A stretch of 64,000 bases of DNA, taken from the NCBI RefSeq assembly GCF_013167455.1, contig NZ_CP038328.1. One strand, 5' to 3'. The stretch is from Escherichia coli O157:H7. Lineage in GTDB: Bacteria > Pseudomonadota > Gammaproteobacteria > Enterobacterales > Enterobacteriaceae. The stretch's first letter is position 1. The number at the start of each line of letters is the position of its first letter. Both the position numbers and the translations under genes were made by a program. The notes under the pieces are model-generated. The model made no database searches. It saw only the letters and a list, made by a program, of their open reading frames with translations, and was not told the DNA's origin. This document shows positions 4,039 to 29,664 of this stretch, piece by piece.

Positions 4039-4220
4039 TTTTTGCTTTCCTTCTTCATTTATAGGTTTGCACCGATGATGTCGCTGAAGGTTAACATATT
4101 CATCAGATTTATTAATTTGCTTTATGAATAACTTAAAGAATATTCAGACAATTTTACCTGCTCTTTTAGTGTTAAATTCTGATGAGAGAGCAAACCAGCA
4201 GAAATATCTCTGGTGAATTA

Positions 4221-20275: not shown

Positions 20276-20292
20276 TTTGGTCGGCACGAGAG
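20276..20292. repeat. attL: 17-bp direct repeat TTTGGTCGGCACGAGAG, a copy of the tRNA-Pro 3' end
   Basis: Identical 17-mer at 29850-29866 overlapping the tRNA-Pro 3' end. Confidence 0.85.
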
Positions 20293-21180: not shown

Positions 21181-22149
21181 TTATCCCGATACGGGGATCA
21201 CCATATCGGGATTGATGCCGGAAAAATCAGCTTTCGCCAGAACGGTGACGGCCTTATCGAGTTTTTGCCATCCGCAATAGGTGATTGCCCTGAACGCTGT
21301 AGCGTCATTCTGGAAAAGGCTAACCGCCCCTGATTCGGTTTTTATTACCGCCTCATCAGTTGGGGTTATAACCGTGGCTTCAACGTTAATAATCAGCTTT
21401 TGAGCGTCTATCAGCATCATGCGATCCGCCTGTTCGCTCACAATTACCGGTATTCTCAAAAGCTCTATCTGCCAGAACTCAGCATCAGTAAGCTGTAATG
21501 CGTTTTCTACGGGCAAGATTAGCGACGACGTGGAAAGCGTGTTACCGTTCGCTATGTGCTTTTTGAAAAGCTCTATGAAGTTTTCGGCCTCATCAGCACC
21601 ATTAAGCACGCCCTCAGGGGATACGCCAGCCACCTCCTGATCACTGGAAAGAAATTTTTTATCTATTTCTTTCACCGATTCCGATGTGATCAAGTCTCTG
21701 ATCGCTGAATTGGTGCCAGGGGTGCTAAATTTGATTAGCTCGTTATTCAGCATCACAATAGCGCCAAGTTTGCACAGTTTTAGCGCGCTTTCGTTTACTT
21801 CTCCCTCTTTGACAGGGATTTCTTCTGCTTCTTTAAGCCATTTACTACCCTTGCCTGATATTGACTGCAATTTTGCGCCAAACGGAAGATTAAGCGCGCT
21901 GCTGATTAGCTTGCCTGGTACAGACTGCGAAAAAATATATTCTCCAAGCTCTCTTACTATCGGCTCTGCCACCAGCGACGGCATATTATCCGTAGTCATT
22001 CCGGCAATAATGGATTTTTCAAGAAATTTCGATACTGCCGGATCATTTCTTTTCGTCATCTCTATAGCGTCTGCATGGCTGAATTTACACGATGTAAGCA
22101 CGCTGGCGGCGCGAACTGCCGAAACGCCTTTCATGTTTTTAGAAATCAT
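21181..22149 (-). CDS. Putative HK97-fold major capsid protein-like
   Basis: ~322 aa; segments GKGSKWLKEAEEIPVKEGEVNESALKLCKLGAIVMLNNELIKFS and EGVLNGADEAENF resemble conserved Phage_capsid (HK97 family) motifs from memory; start taken at second ATG (9 nt after GGAGG). Confidence 0.5.
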   Translation of the reverse strand: MISKNMKGVSAVRAASVLTSCKFSHADAIEMTKRNDPAVSKFLEKSIIAGMTTDNMPSLVAEPIVRELGEYIFSQSVPGKLISSALNLPFGAKLQSISGKGSKWLKEAEEIPVKEGEVNESALKLCKLGAIVMLNNELIKFSTPGTNSAIRDLITSESVKEIDKKFLSSDQEVAGVSPEGVLNGADEAENFIELFKKHIANGNTLSTSSLILPVENALQLTDAEFWQIELLRIPVIVSEQADRMMLIDAQKLIINVEATVITPTDEAVIKTESGAVSLFQNDATAFRAITYCGWQKLDKAVTVLAKADFSGINPDMVIPVSG

Positions 22150-22300
22150 CTTCTTCATCCTCCTGGAAGCACGGGTTTAGTGTTTCGTGAAAATATGGCA
22201 TCAGAACAGCGGCGGCCTGTAACCGTATTTCGGTCGGCTGCTGCTTGTCGTTCATGATTTCCGTGAGTACATCAATAGGGTCTGTGATGTATTCGCTCAT
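22139..22300 (-). CDS. Small acidic protein (53 aa) between terS-like and capsid-like genes; below ORF-track threshold
   Basis: ATG with GAGGT RBS 11 nt after terS stop; MSEYITDPIDVLTEIMNDKQQ...EDEEDDF; overlaps capsid-like gene start. Confidence 0.4.
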   Translation of the reverse strand: MSEYITDPIDVLTEIMNDKQQPTEIRLQAAAVLMPYFHETLNPCFQEDEEDDF

Positions 22301-22311
22301 AGTTCGCTACC

Positions 22312-22800
22312 TCAGTGTTTTAAGTCTGTTGGTGGCTTAGGGATGGGGAACCGATTTGAGTAGACACTAGCGGCATTGAGTTTTTTAACCTCTTTTTTCC
22401 CAATGCTGCCGATCTTGCGGTGGGTGAACTGGGCCAGCTTAAACGCGGCATCTAAAGCCAGTTTTGGATCTGTGTCCATGTTGTCAATCAGTATCCTGCC
22501 CATTGCTTTGATGGGGTCGGGTAGGCCGTTATCCATCATCTCAATGGTGTTAATTGATGCCCGTTCCGGTGTAACTTTTTCGGTAACTTTCTTTGTAACT
22601 TTTTTCGGTTTTGTAACCTGAAAAGTTACATCAGAAGTTACAGCCTTAAGATACTTTTTCACCTCAGGATCGTTGGATAGCTGCCAGCCTTTAACCCTTG
22701 CGGTCTTTTCGCTGTATCCAGCATGTATAGCGGCTTCCGTGGGATTTGCGCCCCTTGATAACGCATCAGCAAACCGCTTTTTTTTGGTCGTTAATGCCAT
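22312..22800 (-). CDS. Terminase small subunit-like protein (TerS)
   Basis: Starts MALTTKKKRFADALSRGANPTEAAIHAGYSEKTARVKGWQL, matching the recalled TerS HTH motif (Terminase_2-type); GAGG RBS upstream; the 46-aa N-terminal extension in the track ORF is rejected. Confidence 0.6.
   Translation of the reverse strand: MALTTKKKRFADALSRGANPTEAAIHAGYSEKTARVKGWQLSNDPEVKKYLKAVTSDVTFQVTKPKKVTKKVTEKVTPERASINTIEMMDNGLPDPIKAMGRILIDNMDTDPKLALDAAFKLAQFTHRKIGSIGKKEVKKLNAASVYSNRFPIPKPPTDLKH
22565..22643. repeat. Array of AAAGTTAC / GTAACTTT repeats inside terS-like gene (candidate pac/terminase recognition site)
   Basis: At least six copies in both orientations, encoding the KKVTKKVTEKVT peptide; similar copies upstream at 22821-22850. 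Confidence 0.4.
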
Positions 22801-23417: not shown

Positions 23418-23657
23418 TTATTCTCCAGCGCTTTTAACGTTGATGGTTGTTACCTGTTCCGCTTCGGCAATCTCCCGTTCTGTCAGCGTGGCAAAGTTTG
23501 CCGCCGCTGTGGTCATGAATGCGCTTATCAGTTCGGGATGTGCTTTCGCATATCCTTCCCCGGCGTTGCGGTCGATGATTTTTATCGACACCCTTAACCA
23601 GTGTTCCGTCAAATCAAGGGCGTGCGATTGTGATTTTTTTGTGTGCTTCGCTGTCAT
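23418..23657 (-). CDS. Hypothetical 79-aa protein downstream of origin
   Basis: ORF only; weak RBS. Confidence 0.4.
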   Translation of the reverse strand: MTAKHTKKSQSHALDLTEHWLRVSIKIIDRNAGEGYAKAHPELISAFMTTAAANFATLTEREIAEAEQVTTINVKSAGE

Positions 23658-23699
23658 AGGCTTTATCTCACAGCAGTAAATTAAAATTTTTGCGTTTTA

Positions 23700-23935
23700 A
23701 CCCTTCACCTGTTCACCTTTTGATATTTTATCTTTTAATTCATAATGTTAAGGGGTGAACAGTTTCACAAAAACTATTCACCAACTATTCACCACTGTTC
23801 ACCCTTGAAGCTCAATAAACAATCAAAAAGGTGAACAGTGAATAGTTTGGTGAACAGTTCATAAATAACTGTTCACCCTATAATATACTGATATAAAAGA
23901 TATTTATGACAGGGTGAACAGTGGTGAACAGTTAT
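23700..23935. repeat. Iteron array (GGTGAACAG / CTGTTCACC, with CTATTCACC variants) and AT-rich tracts: putative island replication origin
   Basis: At least 8 perfect 9-mers in both orientations plus variants, immediately 3' of the primase-helicase gene. Confidence 0.75.
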
Positions 23936-23944
23936 TCCATAAGT

Positions 23945-25762
23945 TTAATTTTTGCTATCGTCATTAGTGACCGATACACATGACGGCATCCAGTCTTCTG
24001 ATTCCTCCGTCAGTGTCACGTTTGAACGCAAACCGTGCTTCGTTTTCCGTTTCATATACTCCCTGCCATATTCCGCCATTGCCCCCGGCATATCTTTACC
24101 GAAGCGCGTCAGTGTTACAGGTTTACCGAATCCGTGTGCCCTCATATATGCCAGATAGGCGTGATAAAGATACCTGCGCGGACTGAACGGAATAATTTCG
24201 GCATTACCCACTAACAGACCATCACACATTACCGACGACATGAGATAGCCGCAGAAGTCCACCAGCGAATCGCCCTCGCGTTTTATCACCAGAGCTTCTT
24301 CTGATTTCTGCTGCTCATACAGCAGGCGTTTAGCTTCGTCCTGGTCAGAAAAACGAGTAAGCAGGTGGCGAATCACAACCGCCAGCTCTCCTTCTATTTT
24401 TTCTGCCAGCATGGGGTCGCGTTCGTTTTCCGGTACAACCTCCGAAAAATTGAATATCACCCGACGACGTGAAATCCCCCCGCTGCGGTCACTGAATGAC
24501 ATGGCGTTATTGTTCACCGCCAACACTACCGCCTGAATGCGTGTTGAGTAGGGGGCTTTATGCTTCGGGTCGATTGCCACCTTGTCACCGCCTGTAATGG
24601 CCTTAATTCCTGCGCCATCACCAGCGTAACGGGTCATATCCGGCATGATAATCAGCGAAAAGCCAACCACTAACGCGCGTTCCCTGGCATCTTCCAGCGC
24701 CTTCATGCTTGCCGATACCGTGTTGGCCTTACCCGCCAGCATGGTGCAAATCTCCGCCATCACGCTTTTACCACTTCCCCCTGGACCTGTTACCTCAATG
24801 AATAACTGCCAGTCGTACCGGTTCGCCAGCACCATGAATAATGCAGCCAGTACGCGATCCGCCTTGCGGTCATTCTCAGCCACCGAACGGCGTAACCACT
24901 TCCAGAAATTCGGCGCATGTGTTGCCAGCGTTTCCCCCTCTGCTGGTGGGCTGAAAGGTAATTCACTGGCAATTAACAACCAGTCGTTTTTGTTATGCTC
25001 CCGAAAATCGCCTGTCCGGGTATCAAAAACACCGTTACTGAATCCAATCAGGTTACGGGCTGTATTCCCCATTACAGGCAAACTTAACTTCATGGTATCG
25101 ACCGCCGATTTAATGGCGTTCTGCGAATAGCTGATCTCCGCATCAATGAAAATCTGTGCCATAGCTCGCTGTAATTCTTTATCCTGTACTGGCTCCCATA
25201 CAACGCCGTTGTAATAGTGAACAGTGTCAGAGTCAGCATGAATCGCCAGTTCACCGCCATAATGTGCCAGGAGAACTTCGCCGCGTTGACTTGCTCCCAT
25301 CTGGTTAAGCGCCAGTGATGAAGCGTTATCGTCTTTTACCCGCTCTTTTTTCTTTACAGGCAGTTCAACTACCTTTTTCTTTTCCGCCTGCTCTGCCCGT
25401 TCACGTTCCAGATATTCGCGCCAGTTCTCCCGTTTCTGGCTGTGCATTCCTTCAGGGTAATAATCAGCATCCCTGACACCTGCCGCTGCCAGTTTCTGCC
25501 CGATGGTATTAACAAGCCCCGAACGCAATAACCCCGCCTGATAGAGACGCACGCGATAGCGTCCGTCCGGTACGATTTGCAGGTTGTCCAGTTCGGCAAG
25601 TTGTTGCTCTCCAAGCCAGACAGGTGGCACGTTATCGCCAGCCAGTCGCCCGTCCTGTTCCTGCCACTGCTTCGCATGTGCCCACGCATCACTACCCGCA
25701 AAAATGATGACTTCCGTCATTTTGTCACGTGGCTGGTGTTTTAAATTTGGCGCTTTTTTCAT
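23945..25762 (-). CDS. Replication initiator primase-helicase (P4 alpha / D5-like)
   Basis: ~605 aa; Walker A VTGPGGSGKS in C-terminal half; N-terminal region consistent with a primase-type domain; ATGA start/stop overlap with upstream ORF. Confidence 0.8.
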   Translation of the reverse strand: MKKAPNLKHQPRDKMTEVIIFAGSDAWAHAKQWQEQDGRLAGDNVPPVWLGEQQLAELDNLQIVPDGRYRVRLYQAGLLRSGLVNTIGQKLAAAGVRDADYYPEGMHSQKRENWREYLERERAEQAEKKKVVELPVKKKERVKDDNASSLALNQMGASQRGEVLLAHYGGELAIHADSDTVHYYNGVVWEPVQDKELQRAMAQIFIDAEISYSQNAIKSAVDTMKLSLPVMGNTARNLIGFSNGVFDTRTGDFREHNKNDWLLIASELPFSPPAEGETLATHAPNFWKWLRRSVAENDRKADRVLAALFMVLANRYDWQLFIEVTGPGGSGKSVMAEICTMLAGKANTVSASMKALEDARERALVVGFSLIIMPDMTRYAGDGAGIKAITGGDKVAIDPKHKAPYSTRIQAVVLAVNNNAMSFSDRSGGISRRRVIFNFSEVVPENERDPMLAEKIEGELAVVIRHLLTRFSDQDEAKRLLYEQQKSEEALVIKREGDSLVDFCGYLMSSVMCDGLLVGNAEIIPFSPRRYLYHAYLAYMRAHGFGKPVTLTRFGKDMPGAMAEYGREYMKRKTKHGLRSNVTLTEESEDWMPSCVSVTNDDSKN

Positions 25763-26058
25763 TTCTGCTCTCTCCACGCGGCAATCATGTTTTTCAGTTC
25801 CTGTAGTTTTTTATCAACATCCATACATGGCACATGGTTATTTCTGGAAGGCGGGATTTCCCGCCTGAATCTGCTAATAAAGATCTCCACGTTCAGCGAA
25901 CTATGAAATGAATAGCCATCACGAATAAAATACACACGGTCAAACATCAGTTCTTTTACCGTTACTCTGTTACCGTTCTTATCCAGATAAATAGCGCCGG
26001 GGATAATTTTTGGGTGTGCATAACCGCTGGCAGTCAAGCCAGATAAATATGTTCTCAT
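25759..26058 (-). CDS. Hypothetical protein (99 aa), translationally coupled to primase
   Basis: ORF with RBS; its stop overlaps the primase start (ATGA). Confidence 0.5.
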   Translation of the reverse strand: MRTYLSGLTASGYAHPKIIPGAIYLDKNGNRVTVKELMFDRVYFIRDGYSFHSSLNVEIFISRFRREIPPSRNNHVPCMDVDKKLQELKNMIAAWREQK

Positions 26059-26064
26059 GATTAT

Positions 26065-26385
26065 TTATCCCCGATTTGAATCAGTATTCGCTTTCTTTAT
26101 GGCATTTAATGCATCTGTGGCATTTTCAATGGTGCACCGTAACGAAATATTAAACTGTCCAAGCATTGCCAGTAACAAACCGATATTACCCATATCAATG
26201 CGCATGACCTTTTCGTCATAGTCCTCATTTTCTGACGCATGCCACATCAGGCTACCAATTGACGCAACAGCCATTGATATATTGTCAGTAGCCCCATCCG
26301 CAGCGGAATAAACCTTTTTAGCAATATCATGCTCACAGTTAAAATGCGGATTAATCAGGTACTGGTAATTTGACATATCAGGCAT
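26065..26385 (-). CDS. Hypothetical protein (106 aa, starts MPDMSNYQY)
   Basis: Start overlaps upstream stop (ATGCCTGA); track ORF N-terminal extension rejected. Confidence 0.5.
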   Translation of the reverse strand: MPDMSNYQYLINPHFNCEHDIAKKVYSAADGATDNISMAVASIGSLMWHASENEDYDEKVMRIDMGNIGLLLAMLGQFNISLRCTIENATDALNAIKKANTDSNRG

Positions 26386-26935
26386 GGCACACCCCCTGAC
26401 GAATACGGGCGGCGAATACAGCAACACAACCGGACGGGCAACGGCTACGCGCTTCGCGTTCCGTCCAGGCGGTTACGTGGATGATTTGATGTTCTGACGC
26501 GCCAAAGATGATAAAGCGCCAGAGAAAGGCGGTTTGAGAATGTACAAGGGTAGGGATAGTAGCCATGTTGGCAGCCTCCTCAGTGTGGTTAAGATAACCG
26601 CCACCGGAAACGCCAATTTCGCTGGTGGCGGACTGTACAGGGTTGGCGTAACCGGACACTGAAGAAACCGGCGCGGATTGCTCCGCCCCCGTACAGCCCA
26701 CCATTGATAAGGTGTGACTATGCGGCACAAAAAAACACGCGGGGCGCGTGTTATGCGCTTCAGTTTTGCCCAGGACGCCAATCCCGGCACCCGTTTTATG
26801 AGGTGCGCGGGAATCATAGCTATTTTCGACACTGGCGATCAACTGGTTTTTTTCTCCGATATTCAGGGCCAGAAAACGCCACACAAAGGCCGTTTGTGTG
26901 TGTACAAGGTGTGGTATATGATTTACGGCAACCAT
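26378..26935 (-). CDS. Hypothetical protein with internal tandem duplication (possible Ash/Icd-like small-protein family); may be one 185-aa ORF or two in-frame cistrons
   Basis: AGGAG RBS before ATG at 26935; motif IPxLVHxQTAFxWRF occurs twice (N-terminus and at the internal Met at 26566, preceded by GAGGAGG); family name is an unverified recollection. Confidence 0.45.
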   Translation of the reverse strand: MVAVNHIPHLVHTQTAFVWRFLALNIGEKNQLIASVENSYDSRAPHKTGAGIGVLGKTEAHNTRPACFFVPHSHTLSMVGCTGAEQSAPVSSVSGYANPVQSATSEIGVSGGGYLNHTEEAANMATIPTLVHSQTAFLWRFIIFGASEHQIIHVTAWTEREARSRCPSGCVAVFAARIRQGVCHA

Positions 26936-26966
26936 AACGGCTCCTAGTTTACGTTGTTGGTTAGAA

Positions 26967-27008
26967 GCCCTGCGAGTGGTAACGACACTTGCGGGGCTTT
27001 GTCTTTTC
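26967..27008 (+). terminator. Plus-strand-specific terminator-like hairpin within the 5' leader region of the minus-strand replication operon
   Basis: 12-bp stem GCCCTGCGAGTG/CACTTGCGGGGC; both mismatches are G-U wobbles only in the plus-strand RNA; followed by TTTGTCTTTTC. Confidence 0.45.
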
Positions 27009-27026
27009 ATCGATTACCTTGATAAA

Positions 27027-27108
27027 GGTGTCAGCCACTATATTAGTAACAGGTGTCAGCCACGTCAATAGTGTTTTTCCGTTTTCTTGTGTGTATACTG
27101 TCAGCCAC
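27027..27108. promoter_or_regulatory. Divergent promoter region with three GTCAGCCAC operator-like repeats
   Basis: GGTGTCAGCCAC at 27027-27038 and 27052-27063, TGTCAGCCAC at 27099-27108 adjacent to a TATACT -10-like hexamer. Confidence 0.55.
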
Positions 27109-27129
27109 CTAATAACGAGGAAATCAGAT

Positions 27130-27309
27130 ATGGCAACAAAAGCAGTTAATGCAAAATCCAAAAAGCTTGAGGCTCGAGTACCACACGCAATAGCTGATGC
27201 TGTAGAAAATTTAAAGGAAGATGGCGAAAGTACAGGGCAATTTATCGTTTCGGCACTTGAAGGCGAGATCAAACGCCGCCAGCGCCGCAAGGCCAAAGAA
27301 TCAGAATAA
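27130..27309 (+). CDS. Small ribbon-helix-helix-like DNA-binding protein (candidate island repressor)
   Basis: 59-aa ORF with AGGAAA RBS; predicted beta-strand/helix/helix pattern typical of Arc/CopG-type proteins; divergent from replication operon. Confidence 0.5.
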   Translation: MATKAVNAKSKKLEARVPHAIADAVENLKEDGESTGQFIVSALEGEIKRRQRRKAKESE

Positions 27310-27366
27310 TCACTATCAGCGCCGTGGTGTGAGGTATTACGGCGCATTGCTATGCAGGACAACACA

Positions 27367-27540
27367 ATGACCGATAAAGAATTGACCAAAACATTATCAC
27401 CGGCACGGAAAAGACGGCGCAGAAAGATAGAGCATGAATCAGAAAGATTCGCACCATGTGCTTTTGCCCTTGAGCAATTCCTTAAAGAGTACAGGGAAAA
27501 GCGCTCATTGCAGGTATGGCAACGAACTGAACCAGACTGA
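27367..27540 (+). CDS. Small basic hypothetical protein (~57 aa)
   Basis: ORF with AGGA RBS; arginine-rich segment RKRRRRK. Confidence 0.35.
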   Translation: MTDKELTKTLSPARKRRRRKIEHESERFAPCAFALEQFLKEYREKRSLQVWQRTEPD

Positions 27541-27633
27541 TTGCATTGCCCACCAGCCTGATAGCGGCTATCATCCCCGTGCTTATGTTTGGGATCACAT
27601 ACACATAAGGCGCAGCGGGTTAATTGTTCAGAA

Positions 27634-27660
27634 AGGCGGCTCCATATCGGGGCCGCTTTT
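27634..27660 (+). terminator. Intrinsic terminator after plus-strand small genes
   Basis: 8-bp stem GCGGCTCC/GGGGCCGC (one G-U), loop ATATC, then TTTTTT. Confidence 0.7.
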
Positions 27661-27688
27661 TTCGTGTTTGTCATATCTGTGATACCCG

Positions 27689-27895
27689 TTAAGCAGCCGT
27701 TCCGCGTGCTTCCTCTTCGCGTTCTTTCTGCCAGGACAACACATCATCCTCATACCATCCGCGACGGCGTAAACCAACGCGAAAACCCTGCGGAAATTCT
27801 CCGGCGTTGATCATGCTTTGCAGCGTGCTGTCTGCCTTGATGTGGATAATTTTTTTTACTTCCTGGCGAAAGATAATTTTTCTGATTGCTTCCAT
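27689..27895 (-). CDS. alpA: AlpA-family phage regulatory protein / excisionase-like HTH
   Basis: 68-aa ORF; motif STLQSMINAGEFPQGFRVGLRRRGWYEDDVLSW resembles AlpA. Confidence 0.75.
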   Translation of the reverse strand: MEAIRKIIFRQEVKKIIHIKADSTLQSMINAGEFPQGFRVGLRRRGWYEDDVLSWQKEREEEARGTAA

Positions 27896-27912
27896 CGTGA
27901 TTTACCTTGTGA

Positions 27913-27930
27913 ATCCGGTGTATTCCGGTG
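27913..27930. promoter_or_regulatory. Two TCCGGTG motifs upstream of alpA (same motif repeated upstream of int)
   Basis: aATCCGGTGtaTTCCGGTGa; the same heptamer occurs about 5 times at 29743-29844. Confidence 0.4.
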
Positions 27931-28033
27931 ACAAATACGGTAAATCATCGGATATGGGTAAAAACAGTTCCCACCGTTTTTAAACGGTATACACCGTTTT
28001 TTATATTGATGATTTGAAATGGAATTATAAAAA

Positions 28034-28060
28034 AAGCGGCATTTCTGCCGCTTCCAGGAT
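28034..28060 (-). terminator. Intrinsic terminator after the 83-aa ORF
   Basis: Minus-strand GGAAGCGGCAGAAATGCCGC followed by TTTTTTT. Confidence 0.6.
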
Positions 28061-28062
28061 TG

Positions 28063-28314
28063 TTACCGCCATTTTTTGGGCCTGCCTCCGATCTTCATAG
28101 ATGCCGGACGTACGACCTTATCAATACTTACCGCCAGATTTCTGGAAGCGCCACGGGATACCAGAAAATCTACTACCTGTTTTTTTGATGGGGCCGTCGT
28201 TCTGTCCTCCGGATCGTAGGTTGACCAAAATTCATGCTGAACCATCAGGGCCAGTTGCAGCCCGTCGCAATTGCATCTGATATTTTTTTGCATCTTAACG
28301 GTTTCATGTTTCAC
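28063..28314 (-). CDS. Hypothetical 83-aa protein between int and alpA (CxC motif, basic C-terminus)
   Basis: ORF only. Confidence 0.4.
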   Translation of the reverse strand: MKHETVKMQKNIRCNCDGLQLALMVQHEFWSTYDPEDRTTAPSKKQVVDFLVSRGASRNLAVSIDKVVRPASMKIGGRPKKWR

Positions 28315-28391
28315 GGCCTTGTCGTTAAATTTGATGCAATTATACGACGGTTTTACATGGTTTTCGTAGTTTTTACTGGTTTTCTGTACAG

Positions 28392-29633
28392 CTACACGGC
28401 TCGGATACCCCTTTTACCACTGGCGAGGGTTACGCCCGTCGCCGCGGCCTCGACAAATTCGCCCCACCAGCGCATCAGCACGATGCGTTTTTCTATGTAG
28501 TTGCTCCGGTTGTATGCCCGTCTAACTTCGTTGGTGTCGACGTGGGCAAGTGCCGCCTCTATTACGTCCGGCTCGAATCCTTCCTCGTTCGCTGCTGTGC
28601 TGAATATGGCGCGTAATCCATGAGACACCAGCACGCCAGCGAATCCCATACGCCGCAATGCTGCGTTAGCTGTCTGGCTGTTCATCGGCTGCTGTGGGTC
28701 TTTCAGACTTGGGAAAACGTAATTGCGGTGGTGGCTGATTGGTTTCATGGCCTCCAGCACCGCCATAGCCTGACCGGAAAGCGGGATAACGTGATCCCTG
28801 CGCATCTTCATGCGTCCGGCAGGTATCGTCCATTGCTTCGCGTCCAGGTTGATTTCATCCCACCGCGTTGATGACGCTTCGGCGGGACGGGTTACGGTCA
28901 GTAACTGCCATTCAATCAGTAATCTGGTCTGCCGTTCTGTTGCCGATACTGATAAAGCCTGCATAAGCTCGGGCAGCTGTTCGGGGCGGATTGTTGGCAT
29001 ATGTTTTTTTACAGGTGAGGGAAACGCCTTACGCACATTCATAGCCGGATTGGCATCAATCAGCCCACTGTTGGCGGCGTAATCCATTACCTCATTAACG
29101 CGCTGTAAAACCCGCTTGAGTGTTTCCAGGTTGCCGCGCTCCTTGATGGGGGTAAGCACTTCAACGAACCTTCGGGCGGTGAGGGTATCTATTGGCGTGT
29201 TGCCGATGAACGGGAATACATATTTATCCAGCGAACGCCAGATGTCTTTAATCGTGTTGGGGGCCAGATTCTGGCTGATTTTCACCTGGTACCATGCCGC
29301 CGCCACATTTTCGAACGTGTTCCCTTGTCTTCGGGCCTCTGTCTCTCTTTTTTGCCTCTCGTGGTCCTGCGGGTCAGTTCCGGCACTGATTAACGTCCTG
29401 TACTCGCTACGGCGTTTTCTGGCATCAGCCAGGGAAACATCTTCAAGCGATCCAAAACTCAGCAATATTCTTTTTTTGTCCGATGGTCGGTAGTAGGAAA
29501 ATCTCCAGAGTTTTGATCCAGACGGTTTGACCAGGAGAAAAAGCCCTCCGCCGTCCTGCAGGGTGTACTCCTTTTGCGCTGGTCTGGCTGCTTTGATCTG
29601 CACTGTGGTTAATGGGTGTGTTTTTCTCGCCAT
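28392..29633 (-). CDS. int: Tyrosine recombinase, P4-family integrase
   Basis: ~413 aa from MARKTHPLT; N-terminal DGGGLFLLVKPSGSKLWRF arm-binding-like domain; catalytic HGLR and RAYNRSNY(Y) motifs; adjacent to tRNA. Confidence 0.9.
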   Translation of the reverse strand: MARKTHPLTTVQIKAARPAQKEYTLQDGGGLFLLVKPSGSKLWRFSYYRPSDKKRILLSFGSLEDVSLADARKRRSEYRTLISAGTDPQDHERQKRETEARRQGNTFENVAAAWYQVKISQNLAPNTIKDIWRSLDKYVFPFIGNTPIDTLTARRFVEVLTPIKERGNLETLKRVLQRVNEVMDYAANSGLIDANPAMNVRKAFPSPVKKHMPTIRPEQLPELMQALSVSATERQTRLLIEWQLLTVTRPAEASSTRWDEINLDAKQWTIPAGRMKMRRDHVIPLSGQAMAVLEAMKPISHHRNYVFPSLKDPQQPMNSQTANAALRRMGFAGVLVSHGLRAIFSTAANEEGFEPDVIEAALAHVDTNEVRRAYNRSNYIEKRIVLMRWWGEFVEAAATGVTLASGKRGIRAV

Positions 29634-29664
29634 ATGTCTATGATTCCACACGAAAAAACAGGGT

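Follow-up and report, generated by a model that had tools for sequence, protein, structure and literature searches.

The DNA analysed here, a 64,000-nucleotide stretch of Escherichia coli O157:H7 (contig NZ_CP038328.1, referred to as the window), contains a plus-strand hairpin, SL2, located opposite the leader of the minus-strand replication operon of a phage satellite. It is probable, at roughly 70%, that SL2 terminates a conserved antisense RNA that represses the translation of the first gene of this operon. In support of this reading are a strand-specific structure, its covariation among homologues, its position relative to the gene and a near-universal linkage to one gene family. The transcription of the RNA, its start and end, and its effect on the target are predicted from these sequence features. 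A preliminary description of the same DNA had proposed a cis-antisense RNA at this place, and all of the predictions that can be checked at the sequence level (covariation, a T tail on the plus strand only, a -10 element, the fold and the linkage to the target genes in 79 of 79 loci) held. Apparently the element represents an RNA family without previous description, of a kind whose mechanism is well known.

The terminator hairpin and the predicted antisense RNA

The features that make up the element are the following.

26894-26899, plus strand: weak -35-like sequence TTGTGT, 17 bp upstream of the -10 and kept in class-i relatives
26917-26922, plus strand: predicted -10 element TATGAT, in codons 5-7 of the open reading frame (ORF) of the opposite strand
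~26928-27006, plus strand: predicted cis-antisense small RNA of ~78 nt, with two hairpins and a U tail
26930-26962, plus strand: hairpin SL1, AACCAUAACG paired with CGUUG-U-UGGUU around a 12-nt loop, GCUCCUAGUUUA
26953-26965, plus strand: conserved motif GTTGTTGGTTAGA, made of the SL1 3' arm plus the linker to SL2
26964-27000, plus strand: intrinsic-terminator hairpin SL2, with a 15-bp stem including wobbles and its loop at 26979-26985
27001-27008, plus strand: U-rich tail GTCTTTTC, which together with the basal TTT at 26998-27000 forms UUUGUCUUUUC

The core stem of SL2 pairs GCCCTGCGAGTG (26967-26978) with CACTTGCGGGGC (26986-26997) over 12 bp and encloses the 7-nt loop GTAACGA, as in the preliminary description of the hairpin at 26967-27008. 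Three additional pairs, one of them G.U, between 26964-26966 and 26998-27000 lengthen this stem to 15 bp, the plus strand of 26964-27000 reading GAAGCCCTGCGAGTG-GTAACGA-CACTTGCGGGGCTTT. The two non-Watson-Crick pairs noticed earlier, T26971.G26993 and G26974.T26990, are indeed G.U in the plus-strand RNA and C.A in the minus-strand RNA. With ViennaRNA, the plus-strand RNA folds at -26.8 kcal/mol (z-score, abbreviated z, of -5.33, a stability equalled by 0 of 200 shuffles), as compared with -16.3 kcal/mol, z = -3.41 and two internal mismatches for the minus-strand RNA. Directly 3' of the plus-strand hairpin stands UUUGUCUUUU / TTTGTCTTTTC; on the minus-strand side the hairpin is followed by CTAACCAACAACG / CUAACCAACAACG, and no U tract is present there. 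SL2 combines the G+C-rich stem and the strand-specific U-rich tract of an intrinsic terminator. The earlier claim that this terminator is specific to the plus strand is borne out, the minus copy being far weaker and devoid of a U tract. In a terminator scan of 23500-30000, which returned 13 sites against 7.3 +/- 2.8 expected, SL2 ranked first (15 pairs, 8 G-C). In one sequence alone, two transition mismatches that share a strand are nevertheless about a 1-in-2 chance event. Because this pattern is close to a coin-flip, the strand assignment needed comparative testing, and it becomes convincing only with the comparative data presented in the following section.

The ends of the predicted RNA were placed from the -10 element and the terminator, to +/-2 nt for the 5' end and within the U tract for the 3' end. 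Its predicted fold reaches -35.5 kcal/mol (z -4.7). A covariance model of the element, R1, gives it 58.4 bits (E 7e-13); with filters off, no other match in the 64 kb is significant. The SL1 loop holds the sequence CUCC, complementary to the Shine-Dalgarno (SD) sequence, and the 5' arm of the SL1 stem holds CAU, the complement of the start codon. The predicted RNA, which is fully complementary to the target leader, covers the SD (26941-26944) and the ATG (26933-26935) of the opposite strand, as a cis-antisense repressor of translation initiation is expected to do. The 3' arm of SL1 and the linker, written GTTGKTGGTTAGA as a motif, are kept beside three unrelated 5' halves. The motif GTTGTTGGTTAGA is invariant in the islands found by BLAST, an invariance that is partly built in, the motif having served as search pattern for homologues. 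A variant, ATGGTTTGGTTAGA, occurs in second copies of the element.

A weak R1 match was also noticed at 22301-22389 on the plus strand (13.5 bits, E 0.17), opposite the start of a 53-aa ORF at 22139-22300 (minus strand). It shows a GCTACCTC ... GTTGGTGGCTTAG pairing as in the element, as well as pairing between an anti-SD and GTTGGTGG. The terminator hairpin is absent and the place was therefore rejected as a family member; it may be a degenerate relative or merely reflect generic SD/anti-SD pairing.

The predicted promoter of the antisense RNA lies inside the opposing gene. The preliminary description had placed the antisense start there, and the present data agree: the -10 falls in codons 5-7 and the start is predicted at ~26928-26930. 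A TAnnnT sequence is found at a constant offset in essentially all of the 126 unique elements, the observed hexamers being TATGAT, TATTAT, TATAAT, TACGAT, TATATT, TATGCT, TACACT, TAGACT, TAAGAT and TAGAAT. Positions 1, 2 and 6 are fixed while the middle positions vary together with the residues encoded on the other strand (His, Tyr, Asn and Arg codons, all T-ending). Class-ii relatives, the commonest class, carry an extended -10, TGnTATGAT, in place of the -35. In each class a start 7 nt past the -10 hexamer coincides with the base of SL1. The 78-80-nt RNAs predicted in this way from three sequence classes with different 5' halves adopt the same two-hairpin fold (z -4.1 to -6.0), whereas the sense (minus) leader, with a z of -0.85, is no more structured than shuffles. 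The TTGTGT-17-TATGAT site is thus a candidate promoter as judged from its sequence and placement. A conserved G+C hairpin, CCCGCCCTTGCGGG, was also observed in class-ii relatives directly upstream of the extended -10 (for example in L134 at ~4180-4200, upstream of TGGTATGAT), where it sits within codons 8-12 of the Icd-like gene.

The gene that faces the element is described by the following features.

26944->26941 and 26935->26933, minus strand: SD GGAG and ATG of the target, the first ORF of the operon, 20-30 nt beyond the hairpin
26378-26935, minus strand: Eta-like chimeric ORF of 185 aa, composed of an Icd-like N-terminus, Phage_ASH and an Icd-like C-terminus
27040-27068, minus strand: promoter that drives the target mRNA, with TTGACG (27068-27063) separated by 17 bp from TAATAT (27045-27040)

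Both the SD and the ATG are found at the positions first reported for them. The "first gene" of the operon proves to be a chimeric Eta-like ORF, a point missed in the preliminary description. Its first 24 residues, MVAVNHIPHLVHTQTAFVWRFLAL, are identical to those of Icd-like proteins of related islands. The Phage_ASH domain (PF10554) occupies residues 40-133 (E 7e-17), and the segment 26381-26566 matches the NCBIfam family NF033153, "host cell division inhibitor Icd-like". The 185-aa ORF reads through two further RNA elements, isrK and C4, in frame with an Icd-like gene that starts at 26566, an organisation which by analogy resembles that of the nested eta/kil genes of P4. The operon promoter has a -35 (CGTCAA when read on the plus strand) that does not vary among 8 islands. 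Since the mRNA start is predicted near 27033, the leader would hold the complement of the entire antisense RNA.

Covariation of the element and its linkage to Icd-like genes

Homologous elements were found in ~130 distinct related islands of Escherichia, Edwardsiella, Providencia, Photorhabdus and Xenorhabdus. When the 200 bp around the hairpin were used as query, a BLAST match was obtained in 798 of 5426 complete E. coli genomes (about 15%), and up to 4-6 related places can be present in one E. coli genome. The homologues from Edwardsiella, Providencia, Photorhabdus and Xenorhabdus were provided by motif scans, together with ~120 satellite-sized contigs of IMG/VR. The scan of genome contigs (298 Gb) with GTTGNTGGTTAGANGCC was unspecific, most of its 120 matches being due to chance and ~8 being true homologues. 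Loss of the hairpin in relatives without compensatory change had been named in advance as evidence against an antisense RNA. Instead, the hairpin is kept through compensatory changes across the five genera, and such changes of the stem can already be observed in 8 islands aligned directly.

The strand on which the structure is selected was examined with and without an alignment. In the alignment-free test, the plus strand was the more stable one in 44 of 46 unique hairpin alleles, two of the 46 being probably chance motif matches. The mean difference was -4.8 kcal/mol, and G.U pairs numbered 93 against 16. RNAalifold predicted two helices on the homologues. The model R1, built from 24 diverse sequences, recovers 105 elements in 100 sources, and the pairing statistics were computed on 75 distinct aligned rows. 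Over these rows 95.2% of cells pair and 11 of 23 pairs change on both sides (104 cells), values of pairing and both-side changes that were reached by 0 of 500 shuffles; sliding the partner by 1-3 columns lowers pairing to 35-53%. In SL2, 9 of the 14 pairs change on both sides and 96.1% of cells are paired, and the two helices of SL1 pair in 96.6% (helix 1) and 88.3% (helix 2) of cells. G.U cells, which pair on the plus strand only, outnumber A.C cells, which pair on the minus strand only, by 330 to 13 overall, or ~25-fold (160 to 2 in SL2 and 170 to 11 in SL1). The alignment was fitted to R1 and tilts these counts somewhat toward the plus-strand structure; the alignment-free result concurs with them. 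In the homologues, the 12 nt 3' of the stem are 48% T and the 12 nt 5' of it are 8% A. These comparisons argue that the hairpin is a selected structure of a plus-strand transcript with the anatomy of a terminator, and they supply the conserved, strand-specific secondary structure expected of an antisense RNA.

As side observations on the same homologues, BLAST matches often stop exactly at one hairpin edge or the other, and SL2 (26952-27009 compared with relatives) is a mosaic junction, one SL2 allele being joined to varied 5' halves and downstream operator regions. The relatives have at least 6 discrete alleles of SL2, and their SL1 loops occur in many variants.

The linkage of the element to Icd-like genes was assessed from the protein side. 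For this purpose 80 loci were drawn from IMG/VR by Icd-like peptide patterns and not by DNA, 79 of which have upstream sequence. All 79 testable loci show an R1 match on the opposite strand, and in 77 of them the match overlaps the gene start by 13 nt. L326 and L327 share the arrangement of the window: isrK and C4 are inserted between the gene and the element, which lies ~370 nt upstream of it. The linkage appears tight within this family, a statement that does not imply universality. An Rfam scan of 20 relatives with the element found 17 without C4 and isrK and three window-like ones with both. Because those 17 carry it without C4 and isrK, the element is not an appendage of the P4-type system. 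In some islands the element is present twice at a distance of ~750 bp, and both copies are located where an Icd-like ORF starts.

Details of these second copies can be given as a separate observation. They were located in L004 (2243-2329), L161 (11862-11948), L174 (8026-8112), L202 (8367-8452), L205 (2318-2404) and L172 (6315-6405). The pairs are on the same strand and ~750 bp apart in the first five of these, and in L172 the second match is several kb off. The second copies have another 5' half (class iii, with the -10 TATGCT) and the variant motif ATGGTTTGGTTAGA, and they face the start of an unannotated Icd-like ORF.

Proposed mechanism and alternative explanations

On the basis of these observations, the following mechanism is proposed. 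A plus-strand RNA of ~78 nt would be made from a constitutive sigma-70 promoter (26894-26922) inside the first codons of the operon, SL2 acting as its Rho-independent terminator. As it is cis-encoded, this RNA is perfectly complementary to the leader, the SD and the AUG of the Icd-like/Eta-like first gene. Pairing would probably begin at the SL1 loop and then occlude the ribosome-binding site. With the first ORF untranslated, expression of the downstream DUF4222 and primase genes would decrease through polarity or through cleavage of the duplex. Leaky synthesis of the Icd-like division inhibitor would be prevented in the same way and the host protected. Only strong firing of the operon promoter (27068-27040), sufficient to outpace the antisense RNA, would release the operon; the RNA would thereby keep the satellite quiescent and set a threshold for the induced sense promoter. 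More speculatively, and by analogy with P4, translation of the Eta-like ORF may be needed to pass the isrK/C4 termination region, in which case the RNA would gate the whole operon.

A number of points weigh against this interpretation. The antisense promoter TTGTGT-17-TATGAT has 8 of 12 consensus matches, below the 9/12 threshold of the promoter scan. The U tract is interrupted in several alleles (for example UUUCGUCGUUUC), in which termination may be leaky. In the window the first gene, which is the cis target, has been rearranged, and the functional Icd-like gene, 370 nt downstream, comes with a C4 RNA of its own; the antisense RNA may for this reason be partly redundant here. The homologue set was largely gathered by a motif taken from the element itself and its sequences are not phylogenetically independent, and the loci anchored on proteins are close relatives, with 79-98% identity. 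Finally, in O157 Sakai, where the homologue lies within Sp7 (NC_002695.2 1,597,423-1,597,512, minus strand) opposite the start of ECs_1577, the catalogue of Hfq cross-linking sites (Hfq-CRAC) contains no peak in Sp7 at the homologue. This missing peak is not decisive, as cis-antisense RNAs are often Hfq-independent.

The terminator character of the plus strand is solid, and it could be explained without a dedicated RNA gene if SL2 were an insulator that stops stray antisense transcription before the divergent promoter region, the short RNA being a by-product. The weakness of the proposed antisense promoter by consensus is in keeping with such a role, as is the presence of another plus-strand site further upstream, TTGGCA-16-TAAGAT (26568-26595), which would feed transcripts ending at SL2. 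It is nevertheless unlikely, since an insulator leaves unexplained why a conserved, strand-specific SL1 with its anti-SD and anti-AUG abuts the terminator, why TAnnnT stands at a fixed distance across unrelated 5' classes, and why the predicted start falls exactly at the SL1 base in each class. An RNA acting mainly in trans, through GUUGKUGGUUAGA or the anti-SD loop, on other satellites, the helper phage or host mRNAs has a still smaller probability. The conservation of the motif beside three unrelated 5' halves would suit this role, and the up to 4-6 related places per E. coli genome make cross-talk possible. The motif is, however, base-paired within SL1 in every class, its invariance is due in part to its use as a search pattern, and a search of the 64-kb window for a second complementary site gave none.

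The structure could also serve the opposite strand, as a stabilising 5' stem-loop, an attenuator or a sensor of SD access in the minus-strand mRNA leader, the plus-strand features being incidental. Indeed, the hairpin is ~30 nt from the predicted mRNA start, its minus version still folds (-16.3 kcal/mol, z -3.4), and the mRNA could trap its AUG in the mirror image of SL1. This explanation is nonetheless very improbable in view of the excess of wobbles that favour the plus strand in both SL2 and SL1: variation is tolerated where it breaks the minus-strand helix, the minus fold is the weaker one in 44 of 46 alleles, the sense leader as a whole resembles shuffles and the minus strand has no U tract. 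Little credit, finally, can be given to an element acting at the DNA level, whether an inverted repeat bound by a protein (operator or recombination site) or a single-stranded DNA hairpin for replication or packaging. Homology blocks between islands do break at the hairpin edges, as homology does where modules meet, a P4-type primase is encoded in the island, and G.T pairs also stabilise hairpins of single-stranded DNA. The stem sequence nevertheless varies freely with pairing kept, unlike the recognition site of a protein, and the operator-like repeats GGTGTCAGCCAC lie outside the hairpin. In islands with two copies, each copy stands at the start of an Icd-like ORF and is therefore tied to the gene rather than to an origin or a pac site. 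Nor would such an element account for the T tail, the -10 and SL1.

Gram-negative phage-inducible chromosomal islands (PICIs) and capsid-forming PICIs are common, including in enterohaemorrhagic E. coli O157 (Sakai Sp7, with pchE), and they move virulence and defence genes. The silencing and release of the PICI replication operon are only partly understood. The predicted antisense RNA, across the ribosome-binding site of the first gene of this operon, would add a post-transcriptional lock to the current picture of AlpA and a repressor and would explain how the Icd-like division inhibitor is tolerated. A broader proposal can be made only tentatively, and we hold it to be possible rather than likely: the RNA may be the primary determinant of immunity and quiescence in Gram-negative PICI-type satellites without a P4-type CI RNA. 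The alleles of the SL1 loop and of SL2 would then form orthogonal specificity groups which let several related satellites coexist in one cell, each silencing its own replication operon only, and would set the threshold of induction by the helper. Model R1 (alignment A3) can be used to annotate this family, which is absent from Rfam 15.

Known systems and the surrounding satellite island

Searches of databases and of the literature are consistent with a family not described so far. Rfam 15 scans with gathering and E-value thresholds identified no described family at the hairpin, the best match there being ctRNA_p42d (RF00489), whose 14.4 bits (E 6.3) fall below the gathering score of 50. The C4 model gave no match at 26923-27012 even at E <= 10. 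Rfam does hold neighbouring motifs of these islands, namely C4, isrK and int-alpA. Full-text searches of the literature, with the motif as a sequence string and with PICI, antisense and Icd as topics, returned no description of the element; a preprint on the Pas small RNAs was set aside, as it deals with unrelated small RNAs of Stx phages. BLASTN of 26880-27012 gave nothing against a phage collection and, against plasmids, 3 E. coli records and marginal Xylella matches only. The latter, in conjugative Xylella fastidiosa plasmids of ~38 kb (H68-H80), show 76% identity over 75 nt to 26935-27009 (E 2e-3) and could represent either chance or a distant relative.

The closest mechanistic parallels are found among cis-antisense RNAs of other mobile or toxic genes. 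SymR/SymE, a type I toxin-antitoxin system of E. coli, and RNA-OUT/RNA-IN of IS10 rely on a cis-antisense RNA of ~70-80 nt whose promoter lies just inside the coding region of the target. SymR and RNA-OUT cover the start codon and the SD of a gene whose product is harmful or has to stay at a very low level, and they block the initiation of its translation. The element has the same arrangement: its predicted -10 occupies codons 5-7, its start is predicted to fall 2-6 nt inside the ORF, and in relatives the overlap of the model with the gene amounts to 13 nt. It differs from them in showing no sequence or model similarity, in having a fixed two-hairpin form and a conserved linker motif, and in facing the first cistron of a satellite replication operon rather than a stand-alone toxin or transposase; its regulatory effect is a prediction. 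As regards the type I toxin-antitoxin systems, the target family matches the Icd-like division inhibitor family NF033153, the target in the window being the chimeric 185-aa ORF.

CopA/CopT of plasmid R1 and the ctRNAs offer a second comparison. They are constitutive two-hairpin antisense RNAs from the leader of a replication operon. CopA blocks a small leader ORF coupled to the replication gene, and its partner is a divergent small protein that represses the operon promoter. Here YlcI/YnfO is the candidate for such a repressor, the promoter being overlaid by three operator-like repeats. The element is distinguished by the low score of the ctRNA model quoted above and by its location in an integrated phage satellite, not a plasmid. 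In phage P22, the small antisense RNA sar (immI) is made from a promoter at the start of ant, covers the ant ribosome-binding site and lies beside small repressors of the ribbon-helix-helix type that act on the sense promoter. The predicted RNA would resemble sar as a small antisense RNA over a ribosome-binding site, made from a promoter at the start of the regulated gene. There is no homology between them, however, and the target of sar is an antirepressor gene of a lambdoid phage with another gene order.

The c4 RNAs of P1/P7 and the CI RNA of P4 silence the icd/kil-type first gene of an immunity operon by pairing at or near its ribosome-binding site (PMC12197685; PMC10111431), and relatives of P4 seqA and CI RNA have already been noted in Gram-negative PICIs (PMC10111431). 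A true C4 and an isrK share the leader with the antisense element. C4 and CI RNAs are, however, cut from the sense transcript and act through a short loop complementarity, whereas the antisense element is on the opposite strand, has its own predicted promoter and terminator and is complementary to its target over its full length. Membership of the C4 family, judged by the RF01695 score and by an origin on the sense strand, was found on neither count. The hairpin was therefore rejected as a part of the P4-type CI/seqA system, being on the wrong strand, without a model match and present in relatives without C4/isrK. The P4-type immunity RNAs themselves, which the preliminary description had overlooked on the minus strand, lie 160-340 nt downstream of the antisense element and are separate from it. 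Their positions, together with the limits of the island, are as follows.

26730-26806, minus strand: isrK, a relative of seqA (Rfam, 66 bits)
26621-26708, minus strand: C4/CI RNA (Rfam RF01695, 77.6 bits)
20276-20292 and 29850-29866: 17-bp direct repeat TTTGGTCGGCACGAGAG, one copy of which overlaps the 3' end of tRNA-Pro(GGG)

The direct repeat bounds a 9.6-kb island in an E. coli-like chromosome. Its genes encode a P4-type integrase, an AlpA-like excisionase/regulator, the divergent YlcI/YnfO protein, a small terminase and a capsid-like protein, with those for the Icd-like protein, a DUF4222 protein and a P4-family primase on the minus strand. The island is a PICI-type phage satellite at tRNA-Pro.

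The divergent 59-aa protein (27130-27309, plus strand) is named YlcI/YnfO by NCBIfam, and a Pfam search returned no family for it. The operator-like repeat GGTGTCAGCCAC is present in three copies, two of which overlap the operon promoter. Written as (G)GTGTCAGCCAC, the copies at 27027-27038, 27052-27063 and 27099-27108 overlap the divergent promoters; they lie over the predicted mRNA start, between the minus-strand -35 and -10, and at the -10 of the YlcI/YnfO gene, respectively. Related islands have other repeats at equivalent places (GGTGTGGCCCAC, GGTGTAAGACAC and GGTAATTACCAT), which suggests that the repeats are allele-specific operators. Their ligand is perhaps the 59-aa YlcI/YnfO protein.

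The C4 RNA has a loop, UUCAGUGU, whose complement ACACUGAG immediately precedes the SD of the Icd-like gene that starts at 26566. The isrK element has a promoter-like site of its own, TTGATC-18-TATGAT (26842-26813), and a terminator (26752-26734). The plus-strand promoter-like site at 26568-26595 mentioned above is located just upstream of the ATG of the second Icd-like gene (26566, minus strand). A transcript from this site would cross C4 and isrK in antisense orientation and could stop at SL2. Its TAAGAT is contained within GTGTGGTTAAGA, which is similar to the conserved motif GTTGTTGGTTAGA. Finally, the int-alpA RNA motif (RF02996), below threshold in the window, can be observed in the related islands L131 (1236-1302), L052 (8332-8401) and L008 (10851-10917).

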